Assembly (NCBI GenBank): GCA_964016885.1
Contig: OZ024765.1
Span: 21,948,001 to 22,012,000, forward strand
From: Eledone cirrhosa
Taxonomy: Eukaryota
Reading direction: 5' to 3'
Length of the DNA stretch: 64,000 bases
The notes beneath the pieces were generated by a model, which had not been told where the DNA came from, did not search any database, and worked only from the letters and a program-made list of their open reading frames with translations. This document shows positions 1-46,828 of the stretch, in pieces (within the stretch, counting starts at the first letter, position 1; the number at the start of each line of letters is the position of its first letter). The translations under genes and the position numbers were made by a program.

Positions 1-5
1 GGCAG
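1..5 (-). CDS. Hc: First bases of hemocyanin FU-b exon 1 of the minus-strand gene (continues off the left edge)
   Basis: Bases 1-100 are the reverse complement of 46271-46370, including the acceptor ttcag|CTGCC that opens FU-b in the + gene. Confidence 0.8.
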
Positions 6-93
6 CTGAAATTATAGAAGAGAAGGTTTAAATAGAAGTTGATTCTAAAACAAGAAAACATTCACTTGAATTAAAACTATTGTCTAACCCTTT

Positions 94-549
94 AACATTT
101 ACATTACACTATATATACTATTGTATTTTCACAGTAAAGGCTTTACCTCACATAATATCTCACATAACATTTACATTACTCTATCTTTACTATTGTATTT
201 TCACAGTAAAGTCTTTACCACACATAATATCTCACATAACATTTACATTACTCTATATATACTATTGTATTATCACAGTAAAGTCTTTACCTCACATAAT
301 ATCTCACATAAGATTTACATTATTCTATATATACTATTGTATTTTCACAGTAAAGGCTTTACCTCACATAATATCTCGCATAACATTTACATTACTCTAT
401 ATATACTATTGTATTTTCACAGTAAAGGCTTTACCTCACATAATATCTCACATAACATTTACATTACTCTATATATACTATTGTATTGTCACAGTAAAGG
501 CTTTACCTCACATAATATCTCACATAACTATTACATTACTCTATATATA
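94..549 (-). repeat. 72-bp minisatellite (~6 units) in the FU-a/FU-b linker intron of the minus gene
   Basis: Reverse complement of the unit atgttatgtgagatattatgtgaggtaaagcctttactgtgaaaatacaatagtatatatagagtaatgtaa; gives 24-aa periodic pseudo-ORFs. Confidence 0.95.
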
Positions 550-632
550 CTGTTCTCTTACTTCCATTCTCCCACTGGATGATGTATTTTGTTTAGTTCT
601 AGATAAATGTCTGAGAGAAAGGAGGTACTTAC

Positions 633-1865
633 GGTCGTGATGTCCAACTTCTGGGATGTAGGTAACAATTGGTTTTGGAATAACTTCCTCAGGAAGATGA
701 CTTCCATTGATAGCTGTCACTTCGGCTTTCAGATAATAGTCTCCATCTAATTCCAATCCTAAAGACTTGACTGTATCGCTGATATCATAAAGATAAGGAT
801 AACCAAAGTTCCATGGCATCTCTCTTTTACCACCGAGGATGAAGAATTCTCCAGCATCATTATGGCAGTCGTCGCTCTTTCTTGAATCTTTGCTTGGGAT
901 ACACACCATGATGTGAACATTAGCTGATGTCTTGATACCACCCAAACGGAAGTTAGCGAAGGCTCTCGGGTGTGACTGGCGTTCCTTTAATAAGCTGTCT
1001 AATTCAGAAATAGACATTCCATTTAAAGTGAGATCGTCGTAATTATATTCTAAATGGTCGCTAGTGAAAATGTCGGCTGCTTTAGCGTTTTTCTTTGTTA
1101 ATTCAATTGGGTTAGAATCTCGTCCGAAAGGTTCCATAGGAGTGTGAAGTAAGTTTAAACCGCAGTGAATCTTCTCATCATGGCCTCTGTGTTTCTGAAG
1201 AGCTTGCCATATACTAAACAAACGCTCAACGTTGGAGTGGTGTAAAAAGAAGAGAGGGTCGTATGAGGTATAGTCTAGACTAGACATAGAATAAGGGTAT
1301 CGACCCCCAACTAAGAAGTGGACTGGGTTGTGTGCTACCTCAAACTGGACTTCAAACCGACAATAGTCTTCCTGTTCAAAAGCCATCAACATCTTCTCCA
1401 ATAAGCTGTTCTTCTTTCCGTGGGCGGCATCAAAAAGTTGGTTATCAATTGCTCTGGCAGTGACTTTGTTCTCAAATTCAATGGCACCAGAATAAAATAC
1501 ATTTTTCTTTGCTTTCTTACCGCTGGGATCGATAAAGAGCGGATGTTGAACTAAGGAGGGTAGTTCAGATATCGCCTGTGTCCAATCCCAGTAGGGTACA
1601 CCATGAGTCGATCCATGACTTGCCATAACCTGTTCAAATTGTACCACGTACAACCTGTGCCATAAAGGAAACGTAGGCATACCATGGAGACAACATACCA
1701 CTGGACTACCATCGGCAGCTTTACAGTCAGCAGGTTCTCCATGATAGGCTGAAATAGCCTGGAAACCAGTTGGACCGTGGTCAGATTGCATGGAATGTAA
1801 GGCCAATTGTAGGCTGATTATCTCAGCCTCGGTCAAGCTATCGACATTTTTGCGCACAAATTTAC
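633..1865 (-). CDS. Hc: Hemocyanin FU-a exon, minus-strand gene
   Basis: Type-3 copper motifs AYHGEP, CCLHGMPTFPLWHR, PYWDWT, EVAHNPVH and DPLFFLHHSNVER; AG acceptor at 1867-1866 and GTAAGT donor from 632; phase 1 at both ends; protein identical to 43756-44988 in the ORF track. Confidence 0.95.
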
Positions 1866-1967
1866 CTGAAGAAGGAGAAAAAGAAGAAAAAGCAAAGAAT
1901 AAGATGAGAGTAAAGGGAAAATAATAGTTAATGATATTACATATTTTACTGGGATGGGAAGATAAAC

Positions 1968-2060
1968 ATACATAGACACTCTCTCAGACATACATAGACA
2001 CACATACATAGTCTCTCAGACACTCACATACATATACACTCTCTCTCAAACATACACATT
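1968..2060 (-). repeat. Short (~1.5 unit) version of the 60-bp satellite
   Basis: Reverse complement reads ...gtttcaatgtgtatgtttgagagagagtgtatatgtatgtgagtgtctgagagactatgtatgtgtgtctatgtatgtctgagagagtgtctatgtatgtttatc, matching both ends of the 22378-43654 array. Confidence 0.9.
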
Positions 2061-2277
2061 GAAACACATACACACACACACGCACACATGTATGTATGGA
2101 TATATATATATGTATTGTATGCCAGGTCACCAGTTGGTGCTACTGGTAACATGTATCCCAGTACAACCTGTCCATTGTCGGGTCGTTGGTGACTAAACTG
2201 GCAACCCCACCAAGGTTTCTTGGTGAGGAGGGTGACTTTGGACATCCTGCAGGACTAAAAACAAAACCTGTCAAAGT

Positions 2278-2711
2278 GCAAAGGAGCTCTTAAGAGTCAA
2301 TGGCCATCCAAAATCACCGGGAGAGATGACCCCTTAGCCTTTGTCAAGGCAGAATTCTAGGAGAAGGAAAACTCTGATATAACACCTGCAACCCTGATGG
2401 TATCCAATGATGTTGACTTGTTCTTCTTTTTGGTAAATATCATCTTGGTTAAGAGAGTGGGACTGGCTTTGTGCAGTGCCTTTGCTCACTATAAAAGCTT
2501 TGCTTTATATCTGGCATTGCTTTATATCTGGAGATCTCTCTGCACTTGTCGTTACATGGTACCATGGGCCCAGCACTATGTGTCAATAATTGTCACAAGT
2601 GTAGTGTTTGTACCAGAGTTTTCAAGTTGCTGGCTGGACTAAAAAGTCACACTCGTTCAGCGCATCAGTAGGGGTTCTCCTACATGGATATAAAGTAGTG
2701 GCCGTACTCGA
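2278..2711 (+). mobile_element. Interspersed repeat (LINE 5'-region-like), copy 1; inverted copy at 6888-7318
   Basis: ~430 bp highly similar to the reverse complement of 6888-7318 (compare ORFs 2397..2642 and 6957..7199). The family assignment is inference. Confidence 0.7.
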
Positions 2712-2728
2712 AAACGAGTTGGCAGCCA

Positions 2729-2765
<37 letters not shown>

Positions 2766-2951
2766 ACTGTGTACGTATGCATATATGTATTTATTGGGGT
2801 GTGAATTTATGTATATCTGTATATATATATATATATATCATCATCATCATCATCTTCGTTTTCCATGCTAGCATGGGTTAATATATATATATATACATAT
2901 AAGCAAAGAGTTATTTAACAAATTTATTTATAACAGATTCGAAGAGCACTC

Positions 2952-2988
<37 letters not shown>

Positions 2989-2990
<2 letters not shown>

Positions 2991-3196
2991 GGAAATGTGG
3001 TAAGGAACCAGGTGGACCATAACGCACCAAAGTACTCAATACTTAGAGTAGTAGAGTGGGTAATAGGAACAAGTAGGACCCCGACGGCTGAGCTCAAGCC
3101 GTTTCGATGGCTAATTCTGGACTAAAAATCATTTTTAGTCCAGAATTAGCTGTCGAAACGGCTTGAGCTCAGCCGTCGGGGTCCTACTCGTTCCTA
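2989..3196. mobile_element. Fold-back element: 66-bp inverted arms (3064-3129 / 3131-3196) plus a ~75-bp tail, in (TA)n
   Basis: taggaacaagtaggacccc...ctaaaaat-c-atttttag...ggggtcctactcgttccta, with 3 mismatches between arms; half copy at 3463-3522; relatives at 52826-53022 and 54156-54326. Confidence 0.8.
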
Positions 3197-3518
3197 TATA
3201 TATATATATATATATATATAAATGAGTGGTATAGAGATTGTTTTAGCGAGAAGCTAACAGCATTCTATAACATATATGCGACTATAACGTCAAGATGGGA
3301 AAAGTAGTTAACGTAAGATTTAGGAAAAATAATTCAAACTCATCTCAAAAGAGAATCAGGATATAAATTCATCCACAGAGTTTAGTGCAATCCAGGGAAA
3401 AATCAATAGACCTTTAACTCATGATAAAATAAAGTTCAAAACACTTATCCTATATATACATATAGGAACGAGTAGGACCCCGAAGGCTGACCTCAAGCCG
3501 TTTCGACGGCTAATTCTG

Positions 3519-3562
<44 letters not shown>

Positions 3563-3615
3563 GTAAGTTATTCCGGGTTGAATCGGAGGTAACCATATAT
3601 GTATATATATCGGAG

Positions 3616-3654
<39 letters not shown>

Positions 3655-3743
3655 CCAAAGAGATTGTTTTGGTAAAAACAGGAGCAAGCAGGAGAAAGCT
3701 CTCAACATTCGTAATTTGTAGTTACTGATGTTATTATTATCAC

Positions 3744-3777
<34 letters not shown>

Positions 3778-3988
3778 TATGTATACATATATATATATAT
3801 ACCCTAGCGTCCCCCTTATTTACGTGTCCCAACAACTTTTTTTTAGCCGTTGCTCACAGCAACCTGAGGTATATGGCCTCTAATGCGACGAAATGCCTAC
3901 GACGGTTGGATGGCCACTGATGAGGACAAACTTTTTCATATGTAACCCATTTGCAGCGCCGCAGCTCCATTATTATCATATTTACATA

Positions 3989-4019
<31 letters not shown>

Positions 4020-4056
4020 GTGTGTGTGAATATATATACATATATATATATATATA

Positions 4057-4228
4057 TGTTGTTATACTTTGGGAGGGTCATGTTGCCAATAAGAAACACA
4101 CGCAGCAGTTGCTTTCACTCCAATTTATAATAAATTAAATTTATAATTTAATTTATAATAAATTGAAGTGAAAGCAACTTGTGCGTGTGTTTCTTATTGG
4201 CAACATGACCCTCCCAAAGTACAACAAT
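4057..4228. repeat. Second fold-back: ~70-bp inverted arms around an AT-rich loop
   Basis: tactttgggagggtcatgttgccaataagaaacacacgca...tgcgtgtgtttcttattggcaacatgaccctcccaaagta. Confidence 0.85.
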
Positions 4229-4289
4229 ATCGGTTTCAACACACGTTTTCAGATAAAGAATCTTGCTAAACTAATTCAGAAACGAAATT

Positions 4290-5191
<902 letters not shown>

Positions 5192-5258
5192 AATGCGTGA
5201 ATATATGCATATCTATTGTATGAAACTTGGAGAGAGAATTCCAGAATCTTTAACTTAC

Positions 5259-5289
5259 CGTAAGTAATTACTGGTACAAATATTGAGAT
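5259..5289 (-). CDS. Hc: Hemocyanin signal-peptide exon s2 ([11 protein letters not shown]), minus gene
   Basis: Polypyrimidine ctcag acceptor, 31 nt, phase-1 GTAAGT donor that joins FU-a in frame (G+GT = Gly, then KFVRKNVD); mirror of 17881-17911. Confidence 0.85.
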
Positions 5290-5608: not shown

Positions 5609-5659
5609 GATGGAAAGGATTGCCACGCAGAGCAACCTTGGGCTATGGGTTGGTGCCAT
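5609..5659 (-). CDS. Hc: Hemocyanin signal-peptide exon s1a (MAPTHSPRLLCVAILSI), minus gene
   Basis: aacATGG start ~80 nt after the TATA box, hydrophobic core, GTAAGA phase-0 donor. A split signal peptide is established for molluscan hemocyanin genes. Confidence 0.8.
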
Positions 5660-6150: not shown

Positions 6151-6336
6151 GAATAATCGAGAATCGGAATATCAGCCCACGAAATCACGATAAACAATAT
6201 CCGATATATGTGGCAGAGGGCTCAATAATTTGGAAAAATCAGAGCTATAACTATCGTTAAAATACCAACACATAGACGTCATGCCTAAAATCACCCGTGC
6301 AGCCGAAAAAGAACGACCAGGAAGATTCGGGTCACT

Positions 6337-6390
<54 letters not shown>

Positions 6391-6644
6391 CAAACAACAC
6401 GGACACTCTATCTCAAAATTATTTTTGAAAAGCATTTAGAAATGCGCAGCCGGTAAAAACTTAAAAACTTAAAACCACAACTGAATACTAACCCATACAA
6501 TCACTAATACTCTTTTATTCCTAATTAAACCCTTTTTCAACTGTGAACAATTTGTCAGCATTTTCTATTCCGTTTACCAATATATATATATATATATATA
6601 CATATATGTATATTTATTCAGATATATGAATACGTTACATATCC

Positions 6645-6760
6645 AAGGCCAGCAATTTTGGGGGAGGGGGAAGTCGATTAAATCAACCCCAGCACATTAC
6701 TGGTACTATATTTTCTCAACCCGTAAGGATGAAAGGCAAAGTTGACCTGAACGGGGATTT
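6645..6760 (-). mobile_element. Fragment of a tRNA-derived SINE (same family as 20959-21150)
   Basis: Reverse complement contains gtcaactttgcctttcatcctt...agtaccagtaatgtgctggggttgatttaatcgac. Confidence 0.7.
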
Positions 6761-6887
6761 TATTTTATTATAATTCCTGTATTTGTTTTTCTATAAAGTT
6801 TATCTGGAAGCATCTGTTCCCCAACTATCAGATAATCTTGCCAGAACTTTCTGTAATAAGTCCATAGTTTCCAAACTTAAAGTCACC

Positions 6888-7318
6888 TCGAGTACGGCCA
6901 CTACTTTATATCCATTTAGGAGAACCCCTACCGATGCGCTGAACGAGTGTGACTTTTTAGTCCAGCCAGCAACTTGAAAACTCTGGTACAAACACTACAC
7001 TGGTGACAATTATTGACACATAGTGCTGGGCCCATGGTACCATGTGATGACAAGTGCAGAGAGATCTCCAGATATAAAGCAATGCCTGTGCCGTGAAGCT
7101 TTTATAGTGAGCAAAGGCACTGCACAAAGCCAGTCCCACTCTCTTAACCAAGATAATATTTACCAAAAAGAAGAACAAGTCAGCATCATTGGATACCATC
7201 AGGGTTGCAGGTGTTATATCAGAGTTTTCCTTCTCCTAGAATTCTGCCTTGACAAAGGCTAAGGGGTCATCTCTCCCGGTGATTTTGGATGGCCATTGAC
7301 TCTTAAGAGCTCCTTTGC
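6888..7318 (-). mobile_element. Interspersed repeat copy 2 (inverted relative to 2278-2711)
   Basis: Direct reverse-complement similarity. Confidence 0.7.
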
Positions 7319-7740
7319 CCTGTTTTCTCTGTCCTTGTGGTGGTGTTTACCCAGGGTGGGTTGAGCTGGCTCCATTGAAGGAATTCATGCTGTGAGTTCA
7401 TTTCAATGGAGGTTCTGTGCTGCATAGGTCTCAGAAATGGCACCCAGCTGCAAGTATATCCACTTTAGGATGGTGCAATCCATTGCATCAATTAGAGCGC
7501 CGAGCTCTTACTTTCACGCCCAACCCAATTTAGTGGAGCCAGTTCCATGACAGTGATACATGTGAGGGAGTTTGGCCAACAGAGGTGATAAACACAACCT
7601 ATTTGAGCCATTTTGTCTGCCAGCTTGAGCTCACCCCACTGCCCAGCTCAGGCAAACCAACCCCCAGGTTTGTTTGTAGGTAAATCTGACTACAACCTCA
7701 TGGGACAGATCTCAATTTCTGGCTCAACTCAAGAAGGATC

Positions 7741-7768
7741 ACACACACATATATACATATATATATAT

Positions 7769-7861
<93 letters not shown>

Positions 7862-7952
7862 TATATACATATATATACACGCACACATATATACATATAT
7901 ATACACACACACATGTATACATATATATATATATACACACACATATATACAA

Positions 7953-8005
<53 letters not shown>

Positions 8006-8442
8006 CACATATATACATATATATATACACACACACGTACACACACACATATATATATATATACACACACATATATATATATATATATACACACACATAT
8101 ATATACATATATATACACACACACACACATATATATATACACACACATATATACATATATACACACACACATATATACATATATATATATATACACACAC
8201 ATATATATATATACACACACACACATATATATATATATATACATACACACACACACATATATACATATATATATACTAAAAACAATATACATATATATAC
8301 ACACATATATATATATATATATACACACACCCACACACATATATACACATATATATATACACACACACACATATATACATATATATATATACACACACAT
8401 ATATATATATATATATACACACACACATATATACATATATAT

Positions 8443-8487
<45 letters not shown>

Positions 8488-8510
8488 TATATACATATAT
8501 AGATACACAC
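7741..8510. repeat. Compound (CA)n/(TA)n microsatellite
   Basis: Direct reading. Confidence 0.97.
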
Positions 8511-8571
8511 AAAATTATTTCTCTTCAAAATATGCTTCATTTATTGTCACAAGAAAATAATTCAGGTAGAA

Positions 8572-8822
8572 GATCGTCAGCTCGGTGCTTATCCCGGTTT
8601 CATGGCGTGAAGTGACTGAGAGTACAAGACTTCCCCCTGGATAGGACACCAGTCTATCACAGGGTTAAACCTCCAGCTATTACTGGTACTCATTTTTAGC
8701 TGAGTAAACTGGAGCAACGTGAAATGAAGTATTTTGCTCAAGAACACAACACGCAACCCAGGAATCAAACCTACAACATTATGATCGTAAGTCCAACACC
8801 CTTACCACTAGGCCACACACCA
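8572..8822 (-). mobile_element. tRNA-derived SINE with Pol III A and B boxes
   Basis: Minus strand GGTGTG-TGGCCTAGTGG-TAAGGGTGTTGGACT...GGTTTGATTCC (A box 8815-8805, B box 8771-8761), followed by a SINE-like body gtgttcttgagcaaaatacttcatttcacgttgctccagt... Confidence 0.8.
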
Positions 8823-11800
8823 ACCAGTCTAACACCCTTACTACTAGACCACACACCAACCAGTCTAACACCCTTACCACTAGACCACACACCAACCAGT
8901 CCAACACCCTTACCACTAGACCACACACCAACCAGTCCAACAACCTTACCACTAGGCCACACACCAACCAGTCTAACACCCTTACTACTAGACCACACAC
9001 CAACCAGTCTAACACCCTTACCACTAGACCACACACCAACCAGTCCAACACCCTTACCACTAGACCACACACCAAACAGTCTAACACCCTTACCACTAGA
9101 TCACACACCAACCAGTCCAACACCCTTACCACTAGACCACACACCAAACAGTCTAACACCCTTACCACTAGACCACACACCAACCAGTCCAACACCCTTA
9201 CCACTAGACCACACACCAAACAGTCTAACACCCTTACCACTAGACCACACACCAACCAGTCCAACACCCTTAACACTAGACCACACACCAACCAGTCTAA
9301 CACCCTTACCACTAGACCACACACCAACCAGTCTAACACCCTTACCTCTAGACCACACACCAACCAGTCCAACACCCTTACCACTAGACCACACACCAAC
9401 CAGTCTAACACCCTTACCACTAGACCTCACACCAACCAGTCTAACACCCTTACCACTAGACCACACACCAACCAGTCTAACACCGTTAACACTAGGCCAC
9501 ACACCAACCAGTCTAACACCCTTACCACTATCACTAGACCACACACCAACCAGTCTAACACCCTTACCACTAGACCACACACCAACTAGTCTAACACCCT
9601 TACCACTAGACCACACACCAATCAGTCCAACACCCTTACCACTAGACCACACACCAACCAGTCTAACACCCTTACCACTAGACCACACACCAACCAGTCT
9701 AACACCCTTACCACTAGACCTCACACCAACCAGTCTAACACCCTTACCACTAGACCACACACCAACCAGTCTAACACCGTTAACACTAGGCCACACACCA
9801 ACCAGTCTAACACCCTTACCACTATCACTAGACCACACACCAACCAGTCTAACACCCTTACCACTATCACTAGACCACACACCAACCAGTCTAACACCCT
9901 TACCACTAGACCACACACCAACTAGTCTAACACCCTTACCACTAGACCACACACCAACCAGCCCAACACCCTTACCACTAGACCACACACCAACCAGTCT
10001 AACACCCTTACCACACTAGAAACACACTAACCAGTCTAACACCCTTACCACTAGGCCACACACCTACCAGTCCAACACCCTTACCACTAGACCACACACC
10101 AACCAGTCTAACACCCTTACCACTAGGCCACACACTAACCAGTCTAACACCCTTACCACTAGACCACACACCAACCAGTCTAACACCCTTACCACTAGAC
10201 CACACACCAACCAGTCTAACACCCTTACCACTAGACCACATACCAACCAGTCTAACACCCTTACCACTAGACCACACACCAACCAGTCTAACACCCTTAC
10301 CACTAGACCACACACCAACCAGTCTAACACCCTTACCACTAGACCACACACCAACCAGTCCAACACACTTACCACTAGACCACACACCAACCAGTCTAAC
10401 ACACTTACCACTAGACCACACACCTACCAGTCTAACACCCTTACCACTAGGCCACACACTAACCAGTCTAACACCCTTACCACTAGACCACACACCAACC
10501 AGTCTAACACCCTTACCACTAGACCACACACCAACCAGTCTAACACCCTTACCACACTAGAAACACACTAACCAGTCTAACACCCTTACCACTAGACCAC
10601 ACACCAACCAGTCTAACACCCTTACCACTAGGCCACACACCAACCAGTCTAACACCCTTACCACTAGACCACACACTAACCAGTCTAACACCCTTACCAC
10701 TAGACCACACACCAACCAGTCTAACACCCTTACCACTAGGCCACACACCAACCAGTCTAACACCCTTACCACTAGACCACACACCAACCAGTCTAACACC
10801 CTTACCACTAGACCACACACCAACCAGTCTAACACCCTTACCACTAGACTACACACCAACCAGTTCAACACCCTTACCACTAGACCACACACCAACCAGT
10901 CCAACACCCTTACCACTAGACCACACACCAACCAGTCTAACACCCTTACTACTAGACCACACACCAACCAGTCTAACACCCTTACCACTAGACCACACAC
11001 CAACCAGTCCAACACCCTTACCACTAGACCACACACCAAACAGTCTAACACCCTTACCACTAGACCACACACCAACCAGTCCAACACCCTTACCACTAGA
11101 CCACACACCAAACAGTCTAACACCCTTACCACTAGACCACACACCAACCAGTCCAACACCCTTACCACTAGACCACACACCAAAAAGTCTAACACCCTTA
11201 CCACTAGACCACACACCAACCAGTCCAACACCCTTACCACTAGACCACACACCAAACAGTCTAACACCCTTACCACTAGACCACACACCAACCAGTCCAA
11301 CACCCTTACCACTAGACCACACACCAACCAGTCTAACACCCTTACCACTAGACCACACACCAACCAGTCTAACACCCTTACCACTAGGCCACACACCAAC
11401 CAGTCTAACACCCTTACCACTAGACCACACACTAACCAGTCTAACACCCTTACCACTAGACCACACACCAACCAGTCTAACACCCTTACCACTAGGCCAC
11501 ACACCAACCAGTCTAACACCCTTACCACTAGACCACACACCAACCAGTCCAACACCCTTACCACTAGACCACACACCAACCAGTTCAACACCCTTACCAC
11601 TAGACCACACACCAACCAGTCCAACACCCTTACCACTAGACCACACACCAACCAGTCTAACACCCTTACTACTAGACCACACACCAACCAGTCTAACACC
11701 CTTACCACTAGACCACACACCAACCAGTCCAACACCCTTACCACTAGACCACACACCAAACAGTCTAACACCCTTACCACTAGACCACACACCAACCAGT

Positions 11801-14800: not shown

Positions 14801-14931
14801 CCCTTACCACTAGACCACACACCAACCAATCTAACACCCTTACCACTAGACCACACACCAACCAATCCAACACCCTTACCACTAGACCACACACCAACCA
14901 GTCCAACACCCTTACCACTAGACCACACACC
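8791..14931. repeat. 36-bp tandem array, ~170 units, derived from the SINE 5' head
   Basis: Unit ccactagaccacacaccaaccagtctaacaccctta; 12-aa periodic pseudo-ORFs; contiguous with the SINE A box. Confidence 0.97.
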
Positions 14932-15246
14932 TCTCTCTAGCTATGAGCTCGAGTCTCCCAAATAAAACAGTTTCGTAAGCTGATGTATTTATTAATCACA
15001 TGAAATTATTATATATTTTATTTAATTGCACAAATTTGGGTAAAGCTGCGATCTTTAAGTTTCAATAATGTCCTTTTCTGGTGTCTGTGCCCTAGGTCTC
15101 TGCCTAGTTGGTCTTAATGGTAGCACCAGCCCTATATAAAACTGTGAACCTTTAAGTTTCAATATTGCGCCTTTCTGGGGTCTGATATCTGTGCCCTAGG
15201 TGACTGCCCAGGAGGGATATGTTCATATAGTTCTTCCTTCGAGGAA

Positions 15247-16570: not shown

Positions 16571-17180
<610 letters not shown>

Positions 17181-34300: not shown

Positions 34301-37300
34301 TGTGTCTATGTATGTCTGAGAGAGTGTATATGTATGTGAGTGTCTGAGAGACTATGTATGTGTGTCTATGTATGTCTGAGAGCGAGTGTCTATGTATGTG
34401 AGTGTCTGAGAGACTATGTATGTGTGTCTATGTCTGAGAGAGAGTGTCTATGTATATGAGTGTCTGAGAGACTGTGTATGTGTGTCTATGTATGTCTGAG
34501 AGAGAGTGTCTATGTATGTGAGTGTCTGAGAGACTGTGTATGTGTGTCTATGTATGTCTGAGAGAGTGTCTACGTATGTGTGTGTCTGAGAGACTGTGTA
34601 TGTGTGTCTATGTATGTCTGAGATAGTGTCTATGTATGTGAGTGTCTGAGAGACTGTGTATGTGTGTCTATGTATGTCTGAGAGAGTGTCTATGTATGTG
34701 AGTGTCTGAGAGACTGTGTATGTGTGTCTATGTATGTCTGAGAGAGAGTGTCTATGTATGTGAGTGTCTGAGAGACTGTGTATGTGTGTCTATGTATGTC
34801 TGAGAGAGAGTGTCTATGTATGTGAGTGTCTGAGAGACTGTGTATGTGTGTCTATGTATGTCTGAGAGAGTGTCTACGTATGTGTGTGTCTGAGAGACTG
34901 TGTATGTGTGTCTATGTATGTCTGAGAGAGTGTCTATGTATGTGAGTGTCTGAGAGACTGTGTATGTGTGTCTATGTATGTCTGACAGAGTGTCTATGTA
35001 TCAGAGTGTCTGAGAGACTATGTATGTGTGTCTATGTATGTCTGAGAGAGAGTCTATGTATGTGAGTGTCTGAGAGACTGTGTATGTGTGACTATGTATG
35101 TCTGAGAGAGTGTCTATGTATGTGAGTGTCTGAGAGACTGTGTATGTGTGTCTATGTATGTCTGAGAGAGAGTGTATATGTATGTGAGTGTCTGAGAGAC
35201 TATGTATGTGTGTCTATGTATGTCTGAGAGAGAGTGTCTATGTATGAGAGTGTCTGAGAGACTGTGTATGTGTGTCTATGTATGTCTGAGAGAGAGTGTC
35301 TATGTATGTGAGTGTCTGAGAGACTGTGTATGTGTGTCTATGTATGTCTGAGAGAGTGTCTATGTATGAGAGTGTCTGAGAGACTGTGTATGTGTGTCTA
35401 TGTATGTCTGAGAGAGTGTGTCTATGTATGTGAGTGTCTGAGAGACTGTGTATGTGTGTCTATGTATGTCTGAGAGAGTGTCTATGTATGTGAGTGTCTG
35501 AGAGACTGTGTATGTGTGTCTATGTATGTCTGAGAGAGAGTGTCTATGTATGTGAGTGTCTGAGAGACTATGTATGTGTGTCTATGTATGTCTGAGAGAG
35601 AGTGTCTATGTATGTGAGTGTCTGAGAGACTATCTATGTGTGTCTATGTATGTCTGAGAGAGTGTCTATGTATGTGAGCGTCTGAGAGACTATGTATGTG
35701 TGTCTATGTATGTCTGTGAGAGAGTCTATGTATGTGAGTGTCTGAGAGACTATGTATGTGTGTCTATGTATGTCTGAGAGAGTGTGTCTATGTATGTGAG
35801 TGTCTGAGAGACTATGTATGTGTGTCTATGTATGTCTGAGAGAGAGTGTCTATGTATGAGAGTGTCTGAGAGACTGTGTATGTGTGTCTATGTATGTCTG
35901 AGAGAGAGTGTCTATGTATGTGAGTGTCTGAGAGACTGTGTATGTGTGTCTATGTATGTCTGAGAGAGTGTCTATGTATGAGAGTGTCTGAGAGACTGTG
36001 TATGTGTGTCTATGTATGTTTGAGAGAGTGTATATTTATGTGAGTGTCTGAGAGACTATGTATGTGTGTCTATGTATGTCTGAGAGCGAGTGTCTATGTA
36101 TGTGAGTGTCTGAGAGACTATGTATGTGTGTCTATGTCTGAGAGAGAGTGTCTATGTATATGAGTGTCTGAGAGACTGTGTATGTGTGTCTATGTATGTC
36201 TGAGAGAGAGTGTCTATGTATGTGAGTGTCTGAGAGACTGTATATGTGTGTCTATGTATGTCTGAGAGAGTGTCTACGTATGTGTGTGACTGAGAGACTG
36301 TGTATGTGTGTCTATGTATGTCTGAGAGAGAGTGTCTATGTATGTGAGTGTCTTAGAGACTATGTATGTGTGTCTATGTATGTCTGAGAGAGTGTCTATG
36401 TATGTGAGTGTCTGAGAGACTGTGTATGTGTGTCTATGTATGTCTGAGAGAGAGTGTCTATGTATGTGAGTGTCTGAGAGACTGTGTATGTGTGTCTATG
36501 TATGTCTGAGAGAGAGTGTCTATGTATGTGAGTGTCTGAGAAACTATGTATGTGTGTCTATGTATGTCTGAGAGAGTGTCTATGTATGTGAGTGTCTGAG
36601 AGACTGTGTATGTGTGTCTATGTATGTTTGAGAGAGTGTCTATGTATGTGAGTGTCTGAGAGACTGTGTATGTGTGTCTATGTATGTCTGAGAGTGTGTC
36701 TATGTATGTGAGTGTCTGAGAGACTGTGTATCTGTGTCTATGTATGTCTGAGAGAGTGTCTATGTATGTGAGTGTCTGAGAAACTATGTATGTGTGTCTA
36801 TGTATGTCTGAGAGAGTGTCTATGTATGTGAGTGTCTGAGAGACTGTGTATATGTGTCTATGTATGTCTGAGAGAGTGTCTATGTATGTGAGTGTCTGAG
36901 AAACTATGTATGTGTGTCTATGTATGTCTGAGAGAGTGTGTCTATGTATGTGAGTGTCTGAGAGACTATGTATGTGTGTCTATGTATGTCTGAGAGAGTG
37001 TCTATGTATGTGAGTGTCTGAGAGACTATGTATGTGTGTCTATGTATGTCTGAGAGAGTGTCTATGTATGTGAGTGTCTGACAGACTATGTATGTGTGTC
37101 TATGTATGTCTGAGAGAGTGTCTATGTATGTGAGTGTCTGAGAGACTGTGTATGTGTGTCTATGTATGTCTGAGAGAGTGTCTATGTATGTGAGTGTCTG
37201 AGAGACTGTGTATGTGTGTCTATGTATGTCTGAGAGAGAGTGTATATGTATGTGAGTGTCTGAGAGACTGTGTATGTGTGTCTATGTACGTCTGAGAGAG

Positions 37301-40300
37301 AGTGTCTATGTATGTGAGTGTCTGAGAGACTGTGTATGTGTGTCTATGTATGTCTGAGAGAGTGTCTATGTATGTGAGTGTCTGAGAGACTGTGTATGTG
37401 TGTCTATGTATGTCTGAGAGAGAGTGTATATGTATGTGAGTGTCTGAGAGACTGTGTATGTGTGTCTATCTACGTCTGAGAGAGAGTGTCTATGTATATG
37501 AGTGTCTGAGAGACTGTGTATGTGTGTCTATGTATGTCTGAGAGAGTGTCTATGTATGTGAGTGTCTGAGAGACTATGTATGTGTGTCTATGTATGTCTG
37601 AGAGAGAGTGTATATGTATGTGAGTGTCTGAGAGACTGTGTATGTGTGTCTATGTATGTCTGAGAGAGAGTGTATATGTATGTGAGTGTCTGAGAGACTG
37701 TGTATGTGTGTCTATGTATGTCTGAGAGAGAGTGTCTATGTATGTGAGTGTCTGGGAGACTATGTATGTTTGTCTATGTATGTCTGAGAGAGAGTGTATA
37801 TGTATGTGAGTGTCTGAGAGACTGTGTATGTGTGTCTATGTATGTCTGAGAGAGAGTGTATATGTATGTGAGTGTCTGAGAGACTGTGTATGTGTGTCTA
37901 TGTATTTCTGAGAGAGTGTCTATGTATGTGAGTGTCTGAGAGACTGTGTATGTGTGTCTATGTATGTCTGAGAGAGAGTGTATATGTATGTGAGTGTCTG
38001 AGAGACTGTGTATGTGTGTCTATCTACGTCTGAGAGAGAGTGTCTATGTATATGAGTGTCTGAGAGACTATGTATGTGTGTCTATGTATGTCTGAGAGAG
38101 AGTCTATGTATGTGTGTCTATGTATGTCTGAGAGAGTGTGTCTATGTATGTGAGTGTCTGAGAGACTGTGTATGTGTGTCTATGTATGTCTGAGAGAGAG
38201 TGTATATGTATGTGAGTGTCTGAGAGACTGTGTATGTGTGTCTATGTATGTCTGAGAGAGAGTGTATATGTATGTGAGTGTCTGAGAGAATGTGTATGTG
38301 TTTCTATGTATGTCTGAGAGAGTGTCTATGTATGTGAGTGTCTGAGAGACTATGTATGTGTGTCTATGTATGTCTGAGAGAGAGTGTCTATGTATGTGAG
38401 TGTCTGAGAGTCTATGTATGTGTGTCTATGTATGTCTGAGAGTGTGTCTATGTATGTGAGTGTCTGAGAGACTGTGTATGTGTGTCTATGTATGTCTGAG
38501 AGTGTGTCTATGTATGTGAGTGTCTGAGAGACTGTGTATCTGTGTCTATGTATGTCTGAGAGAGTGTCTATGTATGTGAGTGTCTGAGAAACTATGTATG
38601 TGTGTCTATGTATGTCTGAGAGAGTGTCTATGTATGTGAGTGTCTGAGAGACTGTGTATATGTGTCTATGTATGTCTGAGAGAGTGTCTATGTATGTGAG
38701 TGTCTGAGAAACTATGTATGTGTGTCTATGTATGTCTGAGAGAGTGTGTCTATGTATGTGAGTGTCTGAGAGACTATGTATGTGTGTCTATGTATGTCTG
38801 AGAGAGTGTCTATGTATGTGAGTGTCTGAGAGACTATGTATGTGTGTCTATGTATGTCTGAGAGAGTGTCTATGTATGTGAGTGTCTGACAGACTATGTA
38901 TGTGTGTCTATGTATGTCTGAGAGAGTGTCTATGTATGTGAGTGTCTGAGAGACTGTGTATGTGTGTCTATGTATGTCTGAGAGAGTGTCTATGTATGTG
39001 AGTGTCTGAGAGACTGTGTATGTGTGTCTATGTATGTCTGAGAGAGTGTCTACGTATGTGTGTGTCTGAGAGACTGTGTATGTGTGTCTATGTATGTCTG
39101 AGATAGTGTCTATGTATGTGAGTGTCTGAGAGACTGTGTATGTGTGTCTATGTATGTCTGAGAGAGTGTCTATGTATGTGAGTGTCTGAGAGACTGTGTA
39201 TGTGTGTCTATGTATGTCTGAGAGAGAGTGTCTATGTATGTGAGTGTCTGAGAGACTGTGTATGTGTGTCTATGTATGTCTGAGAGAGAGTGTCTATGTA
39301 TGTGAGTGTCTGAGAGACTGTGTATGTGTGTCTATGTATGTCTGAGAGAGTGTCTACGTATGTGTGTGTCTGAGAGACTGTGTATGTGTGTCTATGTATG
39401 TCTGAGAGAGTGTCTATGTATGTGAGTGTCTGAGAGACTGTGTATGTGTGTCTATGTATGTCTGACAGAGTGTCTATGTATCAGAGTGTCTGAGAGACTA
39501 TGTATGTGTGTCTATGTATGTCTGAGAGAGAGTCTATGTATGTGAGTGTCTGAGAGACTGTGTATGTGTGACTATGTATGTCTGAGAGAGTGTCTATGTA
39601 TGTGAGTGTCTGAGAGACTGTGTATGTGTGTCTATGTATGTCTGAGAGAGAGTGTCTATGTATGTGAGTGTCTGAGAGACTATGTATGTGTGTCTATGTA
39701 TGTCTGAGAGAGAGTGTCTATGTATGAGAGTGTCTGAGAGACTGTGTATGTGTGTCTATGTATGTCTGAGAGAGAGTGTCTATGTATGTGAGTGTCTGAA
39801 AGACTGTGTATGTGTGTCTATGTATGTCTGAGAAAGTGTCTATGTATGAGAGTGTCTGAGAGACTGTGTATGTGTGTCTATGTATGTCTGAGAGAGTGTG
39901 TCTATGTATGTGAGTGTCTGAGAGACTGTGTATGTGTGTCTATGTATGTCTGAGAGAGTGTCTATGTATGTGAGTGTCTGAGAGACTGTGTATGTGTGTC
40001 TATGTATGTCTGAGAGAGAGTGTCTATGTATGTGAGTGTCTGAGAGACTATGTATGTGTGTCTATGTATGTCTGAGAGAGAGTGTCTATGTATGTGAGTG
40101 TCTGAGAGACTATCTATGTGTGTCTATGTATGTCTGAGAGAGTGTCTATGTATGTGAGCGTCTGAGAGACTATGTATGTGTGTCTATGTATGTCTGTGAG
40201 AGAGTCTATGTATGTGAGTGTCTGAGAGACTATGTATGTGTGTCTATGTATGTCTGAGAGAGTGTGTCTATGTATGTGAGTGTCTGAGAGACTATGTATG

Positions 40301-43300
40301 TGTGTCTATGTATGTCTGAGAGAGAGTGTCTATGTATGAGAGTGTCTGAGAGACTGTGTATGTGTGTCTATGTATGTCTGAGAGAGAGTGTCTATGTATG
40401 TGAGTGTCTGAGAGACTGTGTATGTGTGTCTATGTATGTCTGAGAGAGTGTCTATGTATGAGAGTGTCTGAGAGACTGTGTATGTGTGTCTATGTATGTC
40501 TGAGAGAGTGTGTCTATGTATGTGAGTGTCTGAGAGACTGTGTATGTGTGTCTATGTATGTCTGAGAGAGTGTGTCTATGTATGTGAGTGTCTGAGAGAC
40601 TATGTATGTGTGTCTATGTATGTCTGAGAGAGTGTCTATGTATGTGAGTGTCTGAGAGACTGTGTATGTGTGTCTATGTATGTCTGAGAGAGTGTCTATG
40701 TATGTGAGTGTCTGTGAGACTGTGTATGTGTGTCTATGTATGTCTGAGAGAGTGTCTATGTATGTGAGTGTCTGAGAGACTGTGTATGTGTGTCTATGTA
40801 TGTCTGAGAGAGTGTCTATGTATGTGAGTGTCTGAGAGACTGTGTATGTGTGTCTATGTCTGAGAGAGTGTCTATGTACGTGAGTGTCTGAGAGACTATG
40901 TATGTGTGTCTATGTATGTCTGAGAGAGAGTGTCTATGTATGTGAGTGTCTGAGAGACTATGTATGTGTGTCTATGTATGTCTGAGAGAGAGTGTCTATG
41001 TATGTGAGTGTCTGAGAGACTATGTATGTGTGTCTATGTATGTCTGAGAGAGAGTGTCTATGTATGTGAGTGTCTGAGAGACTGTGTATGTGTGTCTATG
41101 TATGTCTGAGAGAGAGTCTATGTATGTGTGTCTATGTATGTCTGAGAGAGTGTCTATGTACGTGAGTGTCTGAGAGACTATGTATGTGTGTCTATGTATG
41201 TCTGAGAGAGAGTGTCTATGTATGTGAGTGTCTGAGAGACTGTGTATGTGTGTCTATGTATGTCTGAGAGAGAGTGTCTATGTATGTGAGTGTCTGAGAG
41301 ACTATGTATGTGTGTCTATGTATGTCTGAGTCAGAGTGTCTATGTATGTGAGTGTCTGAGAGACTATCTATGTGTGTCTATGTATGTCTGAGAGAGTGTC
41401 TATGTATGTGAGTGTCTGAGAGACTGTGTATGTGTGTCTATGTATGTCTGAGAGAGAGTGTCTATGTATGTGAGTGTCTGAGAGACTATGTATGTGTGTC
41501 TATGTATGTCTGAGAGAGAGTGTCTATGTATGTGAGTGTCTGAGAGACTATGTATGTGTGTCTATGTATGTCTGAGAGAGTGTGTCTATGTATGTGAGTG
41601 TCTGAGAAACTATGTATGTCTGAGAGAGTGTGTCTATGTATGTGAGTGTCTGAGAGACTATGTATGTGTGTCTATGTATGTCTGAGAGAGAGTGTCTATG
41701 TATGAGAGTGTCTGAGAGACTGTGTATGTGTGTCTATGTATGTCTGAGAGAGTGTCTATGTATGAGAGTGTCTGAGAGACTGTGTATGTGTGTCTATGTA
41801 TGTCTGAGAGAGTGTGTCTATGTATGTGAGTGTCTGAGAGACTGTGTATGTGTGTCTATGTATGTCTGAGAGAGAGTGTCTATGTATGTTAGTGTCTGAG
41901 AGACTATGTATGTGTGTCTATGTATGTCTGAGAGAGTGTCTATGTATGTGAGTGTCTGAGAGACTGTGTATGTGTGTCTATGTATGTCTGAGAGAGTGTC
42001 TATGTATGAGAGTGTCCAAGAGACTATGTATGTGTGTCTATGTATGTCTGAGAGAGAGTCTATGTATGTGAGTGTCTGAGAGACTGTGTATGTGTGTCTA
42101 TGTATGTCTGAGAGAGAGTGTCTATGTATGTGAGTGTCTGAGAGACTGTGTATGTGTGTCTATGTATGTCTGAGAGAGTGTCTACGTATGTGTGTGTCTG
42201 AGAGACTATGTATGTGTGTCTATGTATGTCTGAGAGAGAGTCTATGTATGTGAGTGTCTGAGAGACTGTGTATGTGTGTCTATGTATGTGAGTGTCTGAG
42301 AGACTGTGTATGTGTGTCTATGTCTGAGAGAGTGTCTATGTACGTGAGTGTCTGAGAGACTATGTATGTGTGTCTATGTATGTCTGAGAGAGAGTGTCTA
42401 TGTATGTGAGTGTCTGAGAGACTATGTATGTGTGTCTATGTATGTCTGAGAGAGTGTCTATGTATGTGAGTGTCTGAGAGACTATGTATGTGTATCTATG
42501 TATGTCTGAGAGAGTGTCTATGTATGTGAGTGTCTGAGAGACTATGTATGTGTGTCTATGTATGTCTGAGAGAGTGTCTATGTATGTGAGTGTCTGAGAG
42601 ACTGTGTATGTGTGTCTATGTATGTCTGAGAGAGTGTGTCTATGTATGTGAGTGTCTGAGAGACTATGTATGTGTGTCTATGTATGTCTGAGAGAGTGTC
42701 TATGTATGTGAGTGTCTGAGAGACTGTGTATGTGTGTCTATGTATGTCTGAGAGAGTGTCTATGTATGTGAGTGTCTGAGAGACTGTGTATGTGTGTCTA
42801 TGTCTGAGAGAGTGTCTATGTACGTGAGTGTCTGAGAGACTATGTATGTGTGTCTATGTATGTCTGAGAGAGAGTGTCTATGTATGTGAGTGTCTGAGAG
42901 ACTATGTATGTGTGTCTATGTATGTCTGAGAGAGTGTCTATGTATGTGAGTGTCTGAGAGACTATGTATGTGTGTCTATGTATGTCTGAGAGAGAGTGTC
43001 TATGTATGTGAGTGTCTGTGAGACTATGTATGTGTGTCTATGTATGTCTAAGAGAGTGTCTATGTATGTGAGTGTCTGAGAGACTGTGTATGTGTGTCTA
43101 TGTATGTCTGAGAGAATGTGTCTATGTATGTGAGTGTCTGAGAGACTATGTATGTGTGTCTATGTATGTGAGTGTCTGAGAGACTGTGTATGTGTGTCTA
43201 TGTATGTCTGAGAGAGTGTCTATGTATGTGAGTGTCTGAGAGACTGTGTATGTGTGTCTATGTATGTCTGAGAGAGTGTCTATGTATGAGAGTGTCTGAG

Positions 43301-43654
43301 AGACTATGTATGTGTGTCTATGTATGTCTGAGAGAGAGTCTATATATGTGAGTGTCTGAGAGACTATGTATGTGTGTCTATGTATGTCTGAGAGAGAGTG
43401 TCTATGTATGTGAGTGTCTGAGAGACTGTGTATGTGTGTCTATGTATGTCTGAGAGAGAGTCTATGTATGTGAGTGTCTGAGAGACTATGTATGTGTGTC
43501 TATGTATGTCTGAGAGAGTGTGTATATGTATGTGAGTGTCTGAGAGACTATGTATGTGTGTCTATGTATGTTTGAGAGAGAGTGTATATGTATGTGAGTG
43601 TCTGAGAGACTATGTATGTGTGTCTATGTATGTCTGAGAGAGTGTCTATGTATG
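22378..43654. repeat. 21.3-kb satellite of 60/62-bp units (~350 units) inside the s2/FU-a intron
   Basis: Unit tgtctatgtatgtgagtgtctgagagact(a/g)tgtatgtgtgtctatgtatgtctgagagag(ag). Confidence 0.98.
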
Positions 43655-43755
43655 TTTATCTTCCCATCCCAGTAAAATATGTAATATCATTAACTATTAT
43701 TTTCCCTTTACCCTCATCTTATTCTTTGCTTTTTCTTCTTTTTCTCCTTCTTCAG

Positions 43756-44988
43756 GTAAATTTGTGCGCAAAAATGTCGATAGCTTGACCGAGGCTGAGA
43801 TAATCAGCCTACAATTGGCCTTACATTCCATGCAATCTGACCACGGTCCAACTGGTTTCCAGGCTATTTCAGCCTATCATGGAGAACCTGCTGACTGTAA
43901 AGCTGCCGATGGTAGTCCAGTGGTATGTTGTCTCCATGGTATGCCTACGTTTCCTTTATGGCACAGGTTGTACGTGGTACAATTTGAACAGGTTATGGCA
44001 AGTCATGGATCGACTCATGGTGTACCCTACTGGGATTGGACACAGGCGATATCTGAACTACCCTCCTTAGTTCAACATCCACTCTTTATCGATCCCAGCG
44101 GTAAGAAAGCAAAGAAAAATGTATTTTATTCTGGTGCCATTGAATTTGAGAACAAAGTCACTGCCAGAGCAATTGATAACCAACTTTTTGATGCCGCCCA
44201 CGGAAAGAAGAACAGCTTATTGGAGAAGATGTTGATGGCTTTTGAACAGGAAGACTATTGTCGGTTTGAAGTCCAGTTTGAGGTAGCACACAACCCAGTC
44301 CACTTCTTAGTTGGGGGTCGATACCCTTATTCTATGTCTAGTCTAGACTATACCTCATACGACCCTCTCTTCTTTTTACACCACTCCAACGTTGAGCGTT
44401 TGTTTAGTATATGGCAAGCTCTTCAGAAACACAGAGGCCATGATGAGAAGATTCACTGCGGTTTAAACTTACTTCACACTCCTATGGAACCTTTCGGACG
44501 AGATTCTAACCCAATTGAATTAACAAAGAAAAACGCTAAAGCAGCCGACATTTTCACTAGCGACCATTTAGAATATAATTACGACGATCTCACTTTAAAT
44601 GGAATGTCTATTTCTGAATTAGACAGCTTATTAAAGGAACGCCAGTCACACCCGAGAGCCTTCGCTAACTTCCGTTTGGGTGGTATCAAGACATCAGCTA
44701 ATGTTCACATCATGGTGTGTATCCCAAGCAAAGATTCAAGAAAGAGCGACGACTGCCATAATGATGCTGGAGAATTCTTCATCCTCGGTGGTAAAAGAGA
44801 GATGCCATGGAACTTTGGTTATCCTTATCTTTATGATATCAGCGATACAGTCAAGTCTTTAGGATTGGAATTAGATGGAGACTATTATCTGAAAGCCGAA
44901 GTGACAGCTATCAATGGAAGTCATCTTCCTGAGGAAGTTATTCCAAAACCAATTGTTACCTACATCCCAGAAGTTGGACATCACGACC
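43756..44988 (+). CDS. Hc: Hemocyanin FU-a exon, plus gene
   Basis: ttcttcag acceptor, CuA and CuB His motifs, phase-1 donor C|GTAAGT at 44989; matches the Octopus FU-a pattern HGEPADCKA.DGS.VVCCLHGMPTFPLWHR. Confidence 0.97.
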
Positions 44989-45039
44989 GTAAGTACCTCC
45001 TTTCTCTCAGACATTTATCTAGAACTAAACAAAATACAA

Positions 45040-46277
45040 AATGTTATGTGAGATATTATGTGAGGTAAAGACTTTACTGTGAAAATACAATAGTATATAT
45101 AGAGTAATGTAAATGTTATGTGAGATATTATGTGAGGTAAAGCCTTTACTGTGAAAATACAATAGTATATATAGAGTAATGTAAATGTTATGTGAGATAT
45201 TATGTGAGGTAAAGCCTTTACTGTGAAAATACAATAGTAAATATAGAGTAATGTAAATGTTATGTGAGATATTATGTGAGGTAAAGCCTTTACTGTGAAA
45301 ATACAATAGTATATATATAGAGTAATGTAAAGGTTATGTGAGATATTATGTGAGGTAAAGCCTTTACTGTGAAAATACAATAGTATATATAGAGTAATGT
45401 AAATGTTATGTGAGATATTATGTGAGGTAAAGCCTTTACTGTGAAAATACAATAGTATATTTATAGAGTAATGTAAATGTTATGTGAGATATTATGTGAG
45501 GTAAAGCCTTTACTGTGAAAATAAAATAGTATATATATAGAGTAATGTAAATGTTATGTGAGATATTATGTGAGGTAAAGCCTTTACTGTGAAAATACAA
45601 TAGTATATATAGAGTAATGTAAATGTTATGTGAGATATTATGTGAGGTGAAGACTTTACTGTGAAAATACAATAGTATATATAGAGTAATGTAAATGTTA
45701 TGTGAGATATTATGTGAGGTAAAGCCTTTACTGTGAAAATACAATAGTATATATAGAGTAATGTAAATGTTATGTGAGATATTATGTGAGGTAAAGCCTT
45801 TACTGTGAAAATACAATAGTATATATAGAGTAATGTAAATGTTATGTGAGATATTATGTGAGGTAAAGCCTTTACTGTGAAAATACAATAGTAAATATAG
45901 AGTAATGTAAATGTTATGTGAGATATTATGTGAGGTAAAGCCTTTACTGTGAAAATACAATAGTATATATATAGAGTAATGTAAATGTTATGTGAGATAT
46001 TATGTGAGGTGAAGACTTTACTGTGAAAATACAATAGTATATATAGAGTAATGTAAATGTTATGTGAGATATTATGTGAGGTGAAGACTTTACTGTGAAA
46101 ATACAATAGTATATATAGAGTAATGTAAATGTTATGTGAGATATTATGTGAGGTAAAGCCTTTACTGTGAAAATACAATAGTATATATAGAGTAATGTAA
46201 ATGTTATGTGAGATATTATGTGAGATAAAGCCTTTACTGTGAAAATACAATAGTATATATAGAGTAATGTAAATGTT
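45040..46277 (+). repeat. 72-bp minisatellite (~17 units), FU-a/FU-b linker intron
   Basis: Same unit as 94-549 and 63871-64000. Confidence 0.97.
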
Positions 46278-46365
46278 AAAGGGTTAGACAATAGTTTTAA
46301 TTCAAGTGAATGTTTTCTTGTTTTAGAATCAACTTCTATTTAAACCTTCTCTTCTATAATTTCAG

Positions 46366-46828
46366 CTGCCATGATTAAAGTTGATAAAGTTGATATAAAG
46401 ATCCGTAAAGATCTTAATGTCCTCACTAAAGAAGAAGAATACTCAGTAAGGATGGCATTGGAACGTTTTATGTTAGATAAATCTATTAACGGCTACCAAG
46501 CTCTGGCAGAATTCCACGGCCTTCCTGGTAAATGTCCTCGACCAGATGCTCCAAACCGTATTGTTTGCTGTGAACATGGTATGGCAACATTTCCTCACTG
46601 GCACAGACTTGTCATCATGCAGTTTGAAGATGCCCTTGCTGACAGAGGTTCTAAGATTGGGGTACCATACTGGGACTGGTCAAAACCCATCAGCCAGTTG
46701 CCACATTTGGTAGCTGAAGAAACATATCAAGATCCTTACACAATGGAAACTAAAGCTAATCCTTTCTTCCGTTCCCCCATCACCTTCCTCCATTCCGATG
46801 TTTATACCGCCCGAGATATTGATCCAAG
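46366..46828 (+). CDS. Hc: Hemocyanin FU-b exon 1
   Basis: ttcag acceptor; EFHGLP, CCEHGMATFPHWHR and PYWDWS motifs; phase-2 donor AG|GTTTGT at 46829. Confidence 0.95.

Follow-up and report, generated by a model that had tools for sequence, protein, structure and literature searches.

Two head-to-head hemocyanin genes of Eledone cirrhosa, probably an old inverted duplication kept near-identical by gene conversion

We have analysed a pair of hemocyanin genes in a 64,000-nucleotide stretch of the Eledone cirrhosa genome (assembly GCA_964016885.1, 3.0 Gb). This stretch, called the window below, is C26:21948001-22012000 (contig OZ024765.1), so that a position on C26 equals 21948000 plus the window position. 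A further 50 kb was added on either side (164 kb in total), and positions outside the window are given as window-equivalents. The two genes are divergent and lie head to head, with their TATA boxes 11.7 kb apart, and span 20-51 kb. Each is complete once the sequence beside the window is added, and consists of 12 exons (s1, s2, a, b1, b2, c, d, e1, e2, f1, f2 and g) with 8,766 coding bases for 2921 amino acids, a single terminal stop codon, no internal stop and GT-AG borders at all introns. A preliminary description of this DNA had reported two divergent genes, each with its own TATA box, s1, s2 and functional unit (FU) a, and the TATA distance, and all of this was confirmed. The features of the pair are as follows.

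5742-5735 (-) and 17428-17435 (+): TATA box TATATAAA of the left and of the right gene
5659 to -14967 (-): left gene, ATG to stop (C26:21933033); the 3' flank common to both genes runs to about C26:21931218
17511 to 68831 (+): right gene, ATG to stop
5609..5659 (-): exon s1, left; 51 coding bp from the ATG, His5
17511..17561 (+): exon s1, right; Arg5
5259..5289 (-): exon s2, left; 31 bp
17881..17911 (+): exon s2, right
633..1865 (-): exon FU-a, left; 1233 bp; Tyrosinase and Haemocyan_bet_s domains (Pfam run on the identical right-copy protein)
43756..44988 (+): exon FU-a, right; 1233 bp
1..5 (-): first bases of exon FU-b1, left; the gene runs on beyond the window through FU-g
46366..46828 (+): exon FU-b1, right
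54716..55497 (+): exon FU-b2, right
56793..58034 (+): exon FU-c, right
58590..59840 (+): exon FU-d, right
60756..61777 (+): exon FU-e1, right
63481..63721 (+): exon FU-e2, right
64964-68831 (+), window-equivalent, beyond the window: exons FU-f1, f2 and g, right
6156..17002: non-palindromic spacer of 10.8 kb; contains fragments of repeats and, at 8790-14931, a 36-bp minisatellite

Homology between the two genes begins, on either side, within a (TA)n tract (6155 and 17003) that lies about 250-400 bp upstream of the TATA box. It stops about 1.8 kb past the left stop codon (-16782; 95852 on the right, where the end lies beyond a 25-kb satellite), and the two halves of the spacer are alike only in TA tracts. 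The promoter block was found at just these two sites, with no third copy among the 40 candidates scored of 47 in the genome. The sole gap in the 164 kb (200 N, 80965-81164) is inside the 25-kb satellite 3' of the right gene, and both genes, including both stop codons, lie within one gap-free stretch. Intron 1 of both genes also harbours a degenerate second copy of the s1 region (5477-5420 on the minus and 17693-17750 on the plus strand, about 70% alike). It has an ATG and, after 12 codons, an in-phase GTAAG donor, the same in both arms, and could be an alternative first exon.

In FU-a, Pfam families PF00264 and PF14830 scored over the cut-off, and the best PDB matches were molluscan hemocyanins. 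The CuB motif was found in all seven units and the CuA pattern, by regular expression, in six of the seven, the CuA histidines of FU-f being visible in its translation. Both genes encode the seven units a-g with a stop after FU-g, without FU-h and without a d' duplicate, which is the octopod-type subunit. Published work is cited here and below from excerpts of the papers; in these, seven units without FU-h or d' are typical of the octopod subunit, and internal introns in b, e and f are stated for Enteroctopus dofleini and Sepia (PMC3945787). In both of our genes, linker introns separate the units and internal introns occur in b, e and f.

As judged from its sequence, the pair is a Type-R, or FU-g isoform 1, hemocyanin. 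It clusters with Octopus bimaculoides XP_014789836.1 (86% amino acid identity, clade support 0.98-1.0), which is named Type-R (ObH-R) in PMC7931591, and its FU-g is without the five-residue DPEKG stretch, whose absence defines FU-g 'isoform 1' in PMC4491423. An A/G-type hemocyanin would be recognised by at least about 89% identity to OdH-G and by the presence of DPEKG; the pair shows 70.0% to the G-type of E. dofleini, and DPEKG is deleted. Since the pair is Type-R and this distant from the G-type, the earlier suggestion that it encodes the main blood protein finds no support.

The two coding sequences differ at 23 of 8,766 bases (99.7% identical), in 22 codons, 15 of them synonymously and 7 not. 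Between left and right, the proportion of differing synonymous sites (pS) is 0.89% (16/1803), that of non-synonymous sites (pN) 0.10%, and the proteins are 99.8% identical. FU-a has exactly one difference, CCG at 1540 versus CCA at 44081; this synonymous change, the 1233-bp exon length and the His/Arg difference at codon 5 are as first described. The introns had been described as largely non-homologous, and this does not hold. Ten of the eleven are collinear between the copies, and intron 2 alone is mostly unalignable; the preliminary description covered introns 1, 2 and a-b1 alone, and among introns it is intron 2 that forms the exception. In the eight core introns, whose length differences are due to minisatellite copy number, 25 of 3639 non-tandem sites differ (0.69%), which is no different from the synonymous sites (Fisher p=0.41). 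The differences per non-tandem sites in these introns are as follows.

a-b1: 0/137
b2-c: 4/481
c-d: 5/555
d-e1: 0/200
e1-e2: 1/200
e2-f1: 9/750
f1-f2: 4/521
f2-g: 2/795

Divergence in the remaining non-coding segments is uneven. The upstream promoter and 5' untranslated region (UTR) have no difference at 226 non-tandem sites, and the 3' UTR has 6/316. Intron 1 has 13/319 overall and 9/245 at non-tandem sites, the common part of intron b1-b2 has 44/1658, and the distal 3' flank has 23/542 at non-CpG sites (4.2%) with 7 gaps. The promoter and signal block had been described as more substituted; this is true of intron 1 and of the 5' end of intron 2, and not of the promoter and 5' UTR. Taken together, the 13 non-coding segments are heterogeneous (88/6255, chi2=50, Monte Carlo p=2e-5), with b1-b2 (p=3e-8) and intron 1 (p=4e-6) each differing from the core introns. 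The raised divergence lies beside large unshared insertions, and over all 8,915 near-neutral sites a longest-identical-run test gave p=0.016.

Intron 2 measures 3,393 bp on the left versus 25,844 bp on the right, and 21.3 kb of the length difference is a 60-bp satellite. Left/right identity continues about 200 bp into this intron and through minisatellites. Divergence was counted at the ends of intron 2 only, as a global alignment of the whole intron is noise in its middle. Its features are listed here.

1866..5258 (-): intron 2, left; 3,393 bp, made up of (TA)n tracts and fragments of repeats stacked together; homology to the right copy is confined to its ends and to short remnants
22375..43655: 60-bp satellite, right intron 2; about 350 units, as opposed to some 1.5 units on the left
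2792..2810 (-) and 21998..22016 (+): collinear 19-bp remnant of the ancestral intron 2
18100..19850 (-): right-only decayed reverse-transcriptase fragment of a long interspersed nuclear element (LINE), with an RTE-like reading
2120..2730 (-): left-only dispersed repeat, 611 bp

The 19-mer has exactly two exact matches in the whole 3-Gb genome, which are the two intron-2 sites. Such a genome-unique, collinear remnant argues that the intron-2 copies descend from one ancestor. A second possible anchor (3648-3738 versus about 21150-21240) is a dispersed repeat with 1119 candidates, the best siblings at 94-97%, and was rejected as proof of orthology. The two copy-specific elements could be dated against their siblings elsewhere in the genome. 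On the one hand, the right-only LINE fragment differs from the column majority at 71 of 1751 sites (4.05%; 3.5% at non-CpG sites), and its siblings, the 10 closest of the 39 best listed, do so at 0-3 sites (0-0.17%). Its changes fall on codon positions 1, 2 and 3 in the numbers 17, 13 and 21, an even spread that suggests neutral decay in place. On the other hand, 13 of 607 sites in the left-only 611-bp element depart from the column majority of its 10 close siblings (2.1%; 1.55% at non-CpG sites), the siblings themselves differing by 0.5-1.3%, and right intron 2 has an uninterrupted, empty TA/CA tract at its site. These transposons are aged 2-4% per lineage, versus about 0.4% per lineage for the gene bodies (0.69-0.89% pairwise). 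If they inserted after the duplication, the copies would have parted at least 4-8% neutral divergence ago, which is 5-10 times the gene-body figure.

A third element, on the right side (97% to its best siblings), was left out of the dating; a short tail of its family survives close by in the left gene, and the element is possibly shared and partly deleted. Also within right intron 2, the segments 19859-20547 and 21351-22043 belong to one repeat family in inverted orientation and are 88% alike. The introns had been said to carry entirely different transposon insertions. Copy-specific transposons do occur in intron 2, and b1-b2 also has right-only insertions, but the 21.3 kb of satellite in intron 2 is no transposon.

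A second hemocyanin locus of the same assembly, on contig C1 (173745680-173910430), has three tandem A/G-type genes (A, B and C) with near-identical exons. Their identity to the window pair is 72%, and to the G-type of E. dofleini about 90%. As assembled, this trio shows a pS of 2.1-2.5% overall and 0-10% per exon, and intron divergences of 0-20% in a mosaic. In introns b1-b2, b2-c, c-d and d-e1, A and B differ by 0-1% and either differs from C by 6.5-20%. In e1-e2 it is A and C that are close (1.2%), both being 18-20% from B. All three are 17-19% apart in intron a-b1 and 0-1.1% apart in e2-f1, f1-f2 and f2-g. Exon e1, with 0-1 differences in 941 bp, is flanked by introns 17-20% apart, and the upstream sequences are 69-83% alike, in patches only. 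Informative sites fall into 211 runs versus 358 +/- 11 in 10,000 shuffles, a count that includes introns and to which rate differences between exons and introns contribute. This trio apparently holds the clearest signal of gene conversion that we found, and the contrast between exons and introns occurs there rather than in the pair.

We compared 26 full-length sequences in a tree (FastTree, Nautilus root). The relatives split into the same two subfamilies, R-type and A/G-type, and paralogs group by lineage in both. R-type identity is 99.8% within the Eledone pair and 76-86.5% between lineages. Four Argonauta R-type models (GAB1607023-26) on one 28.7-Mb contig (one bears the species name and the rest are assigned by accession series) are 95.6-98.6% identical, or 98.3-100% per unit except FU-f, where the models differ. 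The R-type copy number is clearly four in Argonauta; in O. sinensis it is likely two (two accessions, XP_036370476 and XP_036370637, one sequence). A/G-type genes number three each in our genome, O. sinensis and the CAI97232xx series (probably O. vulgaris, to judge from its accessions), and four in the GAB15986xx series, with identities of 97-100% within and 85-90% between lineages. The A/G copies of O. sinensis and of the CAI series pair by position, which suggests that homogenisation takes longer than the time since these two, very recently, separated. Concerted evolution seems to explain the recurring copy numbers and the lineage-wise grouping more readily than a large number of independent duplications would. 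In a tree with decapod isoforms, the squid counterpart of R or A/G was not settled (node support 0.62).

Considering these results, we think it probable that the pair is an old inverted duplication kept near-identical by repeated long-tract gene conversion that spans exons and most introns. An old inverted duplication homogenised by conversion had already been proposed in the preliminary description, and the ages of the intron-2 transposons, the unique 19-mer, the patchy divergence, the mosaic on C1 and the grouping by lineage support it. With regard to concerted evolution, the sequence would be younger than the duplication, as judged from two elements and on the assumption of insertion rather than deletion, and the paralogs are closer within than between species. 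With regard to patchiness, the pair is patchy overall and uniform in its core, and a clear mosaic is found only in the trio on C1.

As a mechanism, we propose ectopic homologous repair, in which a break in either gene is mended with the inverted gene nearby as template and no crossover takes place. Conversion tracts of kilobase length would cross introns, and large unshared insertions would block them. Intron 1, b1-b2 and the far 3' flank may lag because they adjoin such insertions, and intron 2 and the outer flanks may have fallen out of conversion altogether. Crossover between inverted copies flips the spacer rather than deleting a gene, so that the copy number would stay at two; a tandem cluster such as that on C1 can also gain or lose copies.

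Several points weigh against conversion in this pair. Without introns 1, 2 (its 5' end) and b1-b2, the divergence is uniform (47/7055 sites), and the core shows no tract signal in the longest-identical-run test (p=0.21), which fits a simple recent duplication. A conversion test on informative sites is impossible with just two copies. Part of the excess in the common b1-b2 segment, which is GC-rich LINE sequence, is due to CpG sites (9/108). Two transposons alone were dated, each against its 10 closest sibling hits, and old elements could predate a young duplication and then be lost from one copy. Of one repeat family, 600 bp are present on the right and a tail of about 30 bp remains in the left gene, so deletions may have happened. 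Finally, CAI9741815/16 could not be counted as two R-type genes; they have no substitutions and one 15-residue gap, and may be two models of one gene.

A rival reading is a recent, lineage-specific inverted duplication, with breakpoints in the upstream (TA)n tract and about 1.8 kb past the stop codon, followed by reciprocal deletion of old transposons between TA tracts and by expansion of satellites in intron 2. We consider such a history unlikely. It would account for the equal divergence of core introns and synonymous sites, for the uniform core and for homology past the gene end; the (TA)n tracts of intron 2 favour deletions, and octopod isoforms are treated as recent duplicates in the excerpted literature (E. 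dofleini A/G, about 13 Mya; PMC3945787). However, several complementary deletions would be required on both arms, on either side of the 19-bp remnant, within the time of about 0.4% divergence per lineage. The 4% in intron 1, the 2.7% in b1-b2 and the more than 4% in the distal flank would be unexplained, independent duplications would be required in each lineage and in both subfamilies, and the conversion mosaic on C1 would be ignored.

An assembly artefact, in which two haplotypes of one gene were placed as an inverted pair or exons were cross-polished, is very improbable. A divergence of 0.7-0.9% is within the range expected for alleles, the satellite downstream of the right gene contains the 200-N gap, and of six intronic minisatellites five have their longer version on the right, an asymmetry that may be biological or assembly-related. 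However, no gap interrupts the sequence from one stop codon to the other, and the upstream and outer 3' flanks are non-homologous, whereas those of alleles would match. Exon cross-polishing explains nothing where introns are as similar as exons, and comparable multi-copy sets occur in independent assemblies. We also placed reads from 4 of 19 listed runs on positions 560-4250. A run of the same species (X14) gave one contig (560-1995, depth 15.6), which at 1909 has the letter of the right copy; in the unique intron the reads are swamped by repeats, and there was no spanning read and no single-copy depth reference. A run of another organism (X1) gave one FU-a contig (573-1866) with 86 other letters and a depth of 39.9, which is uninterpretable as copy number, and a restriction-site-associated DNA (RAD) run (X17) had almost no depth on the FU-a exon.

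Conversion confined to the exons of this pair, as the preliminary description had it, is hardly credible and largely refuted: FU-a with its single difference does stand beside an unalignable intron 2, and such a pattern is real at the C1 cluster, but eight introns are as alike as the synonymous sites, an outcome that description had itself set against exon-by-exon homogenisation, and the identity extends into part of intron 2 and across minisatellites.

Drosophila hsp70 pairs, primate gamma- and alpha-globin pairs and Y palindromes are inverted paralogs under gene conversion. As in such pairs, identity in the Eledone pair declines at the flanks and at unshared insertions; it differs from them in its long genes (20-51 kb), its unequal arms (23 kb vs 79 kb) and the 21-kb satellite in one intron. 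A Y-type palindromic amplicon has long, near-equal arms and near-perfect identity over coding and non-coding sequence. The arms of our pair are broken by large unshared blocks, intron 2 is mostly unalignable and the divergence is 0.7-4%, so the earlier analogy to palindromic amplicons is loose. In the Capitella Dlx inverted pair under gene conversion, linked paralogs are likewise closer within than between lineages (PMC3199776). Octopus Type-R genes (ObH-R and OvH-R; PMC7931591) resemble the pair in their seven units a-g and the missing DPEKG in FU-g; the excerpts of that paper give one R gene per species and describe neither a head-to-head near-identical pair nor conversion. OdH-A and OdH-G of E. 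dofleini are also near-identical paralogs in one species (96.7% on a partial A sequence; 97.1% in the supplement of PMC7931591). Unlike the pair, they belong to the A/G subfamily, at 70% identity, and their orthologs here are the three C1 genes.

We found no report of gene conversion in octopod hemocyanins in the open literature, a scope that does not take in papers behind subscription, among them those that first described the E. dofleini genes. The words 'concerted' and 'conversion' were not found in the excerpts of PMC4491423 and PMC8599328, and PMC9635652 does not mention hemocyanin. One molluscan hemocyanin paper, in its excerpted part, saw no indication of concerted evolution in linker introns, a different comparison from ours. 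Near-identical hemocyanin paralogs have been read as independent recent duplications (PMC3945787, PMC8599328). We suggest, tentatively and from sequence comparison, that both subfamilies (the R head-to-head pair and the A/G tandem trio) may be ancient multi-copy loci that predate the Octopus-Argonauta split and are reset in each lineage by conversion. If so, published duplication dates of octopod hemocyanins would be the ages of the last conversion, and hence too young, and temperature-adaptive substitutions would spread over the copies as a unit; molluscan hemocyanin is a model for the study of thermal adaptation and is also used as a molecular clock. If conversion resets the copies, site-wise selection tests on pooled clones would mix converting paralogs with alleles, a difficulty raised in PMC4491423, and short-read assemblies would collapse such loci. 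The two intact copies are predicted to double the Type-R template. The mechanism itself is textbook, and showing concerted evolution for octopod hemocyanins would correct the dates and the reading of 'isoforms'; at this locus, a single gene illustrates how conversion tracts are apparently bounded by insertions and satellites.

Further repeats of the two genes are as follows.

93..551: 72-bp minisatellite, left intron a-b1; 6.4 copies
45039..46278: 72-bp minisatellite, right intron a-b1; 17.1 copies
47076..52740 (+): right-only young LINE in intron b1-b2, with an intact open reading frame for a 1166-aa endonuclease/reverse transcriptase
53054..54356 (+): older LINE 3' fragment common to both genes, with 31/1180 differences between the arms (2.05% outside CpG sites)

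The young LINE is 100% identical (rounded) over 1.5 kb to all 39 other genomic copies among the matches listed. This full-length element of 5.7 kb is embedded in a (TCTA)n tract, and all that the left gene has there of the family is a 40-bp tail. The element is uninformative on the age of the duplication, though it adjoins the more divergent common segment. A short palindromic element resembling a miniature inverted-repeat transposable element (MITE) is repeated in the TA/TCTA tracts of both genes (2957-3223, 3450-3560, 52793-53053 and 54193-54345). The 25-kb satellite after the right 3' UTR (window-equivalent 69148-94492) is related to the 21-kb satellite of intron 2; the left counterparts of the 21-kb and 25-kb satellites measure about 90 and 480 bp. 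A short hemocyanin-like gene on another contig (C27:60900-70200), with about three units, is divergent; it shares 44-65% identity with 'hemocyanin subunit 1' (1271 aa) of O. vulgaris and belongs to a third subfamily, which is on record for O. bimaculoides and O. sinensis as well.

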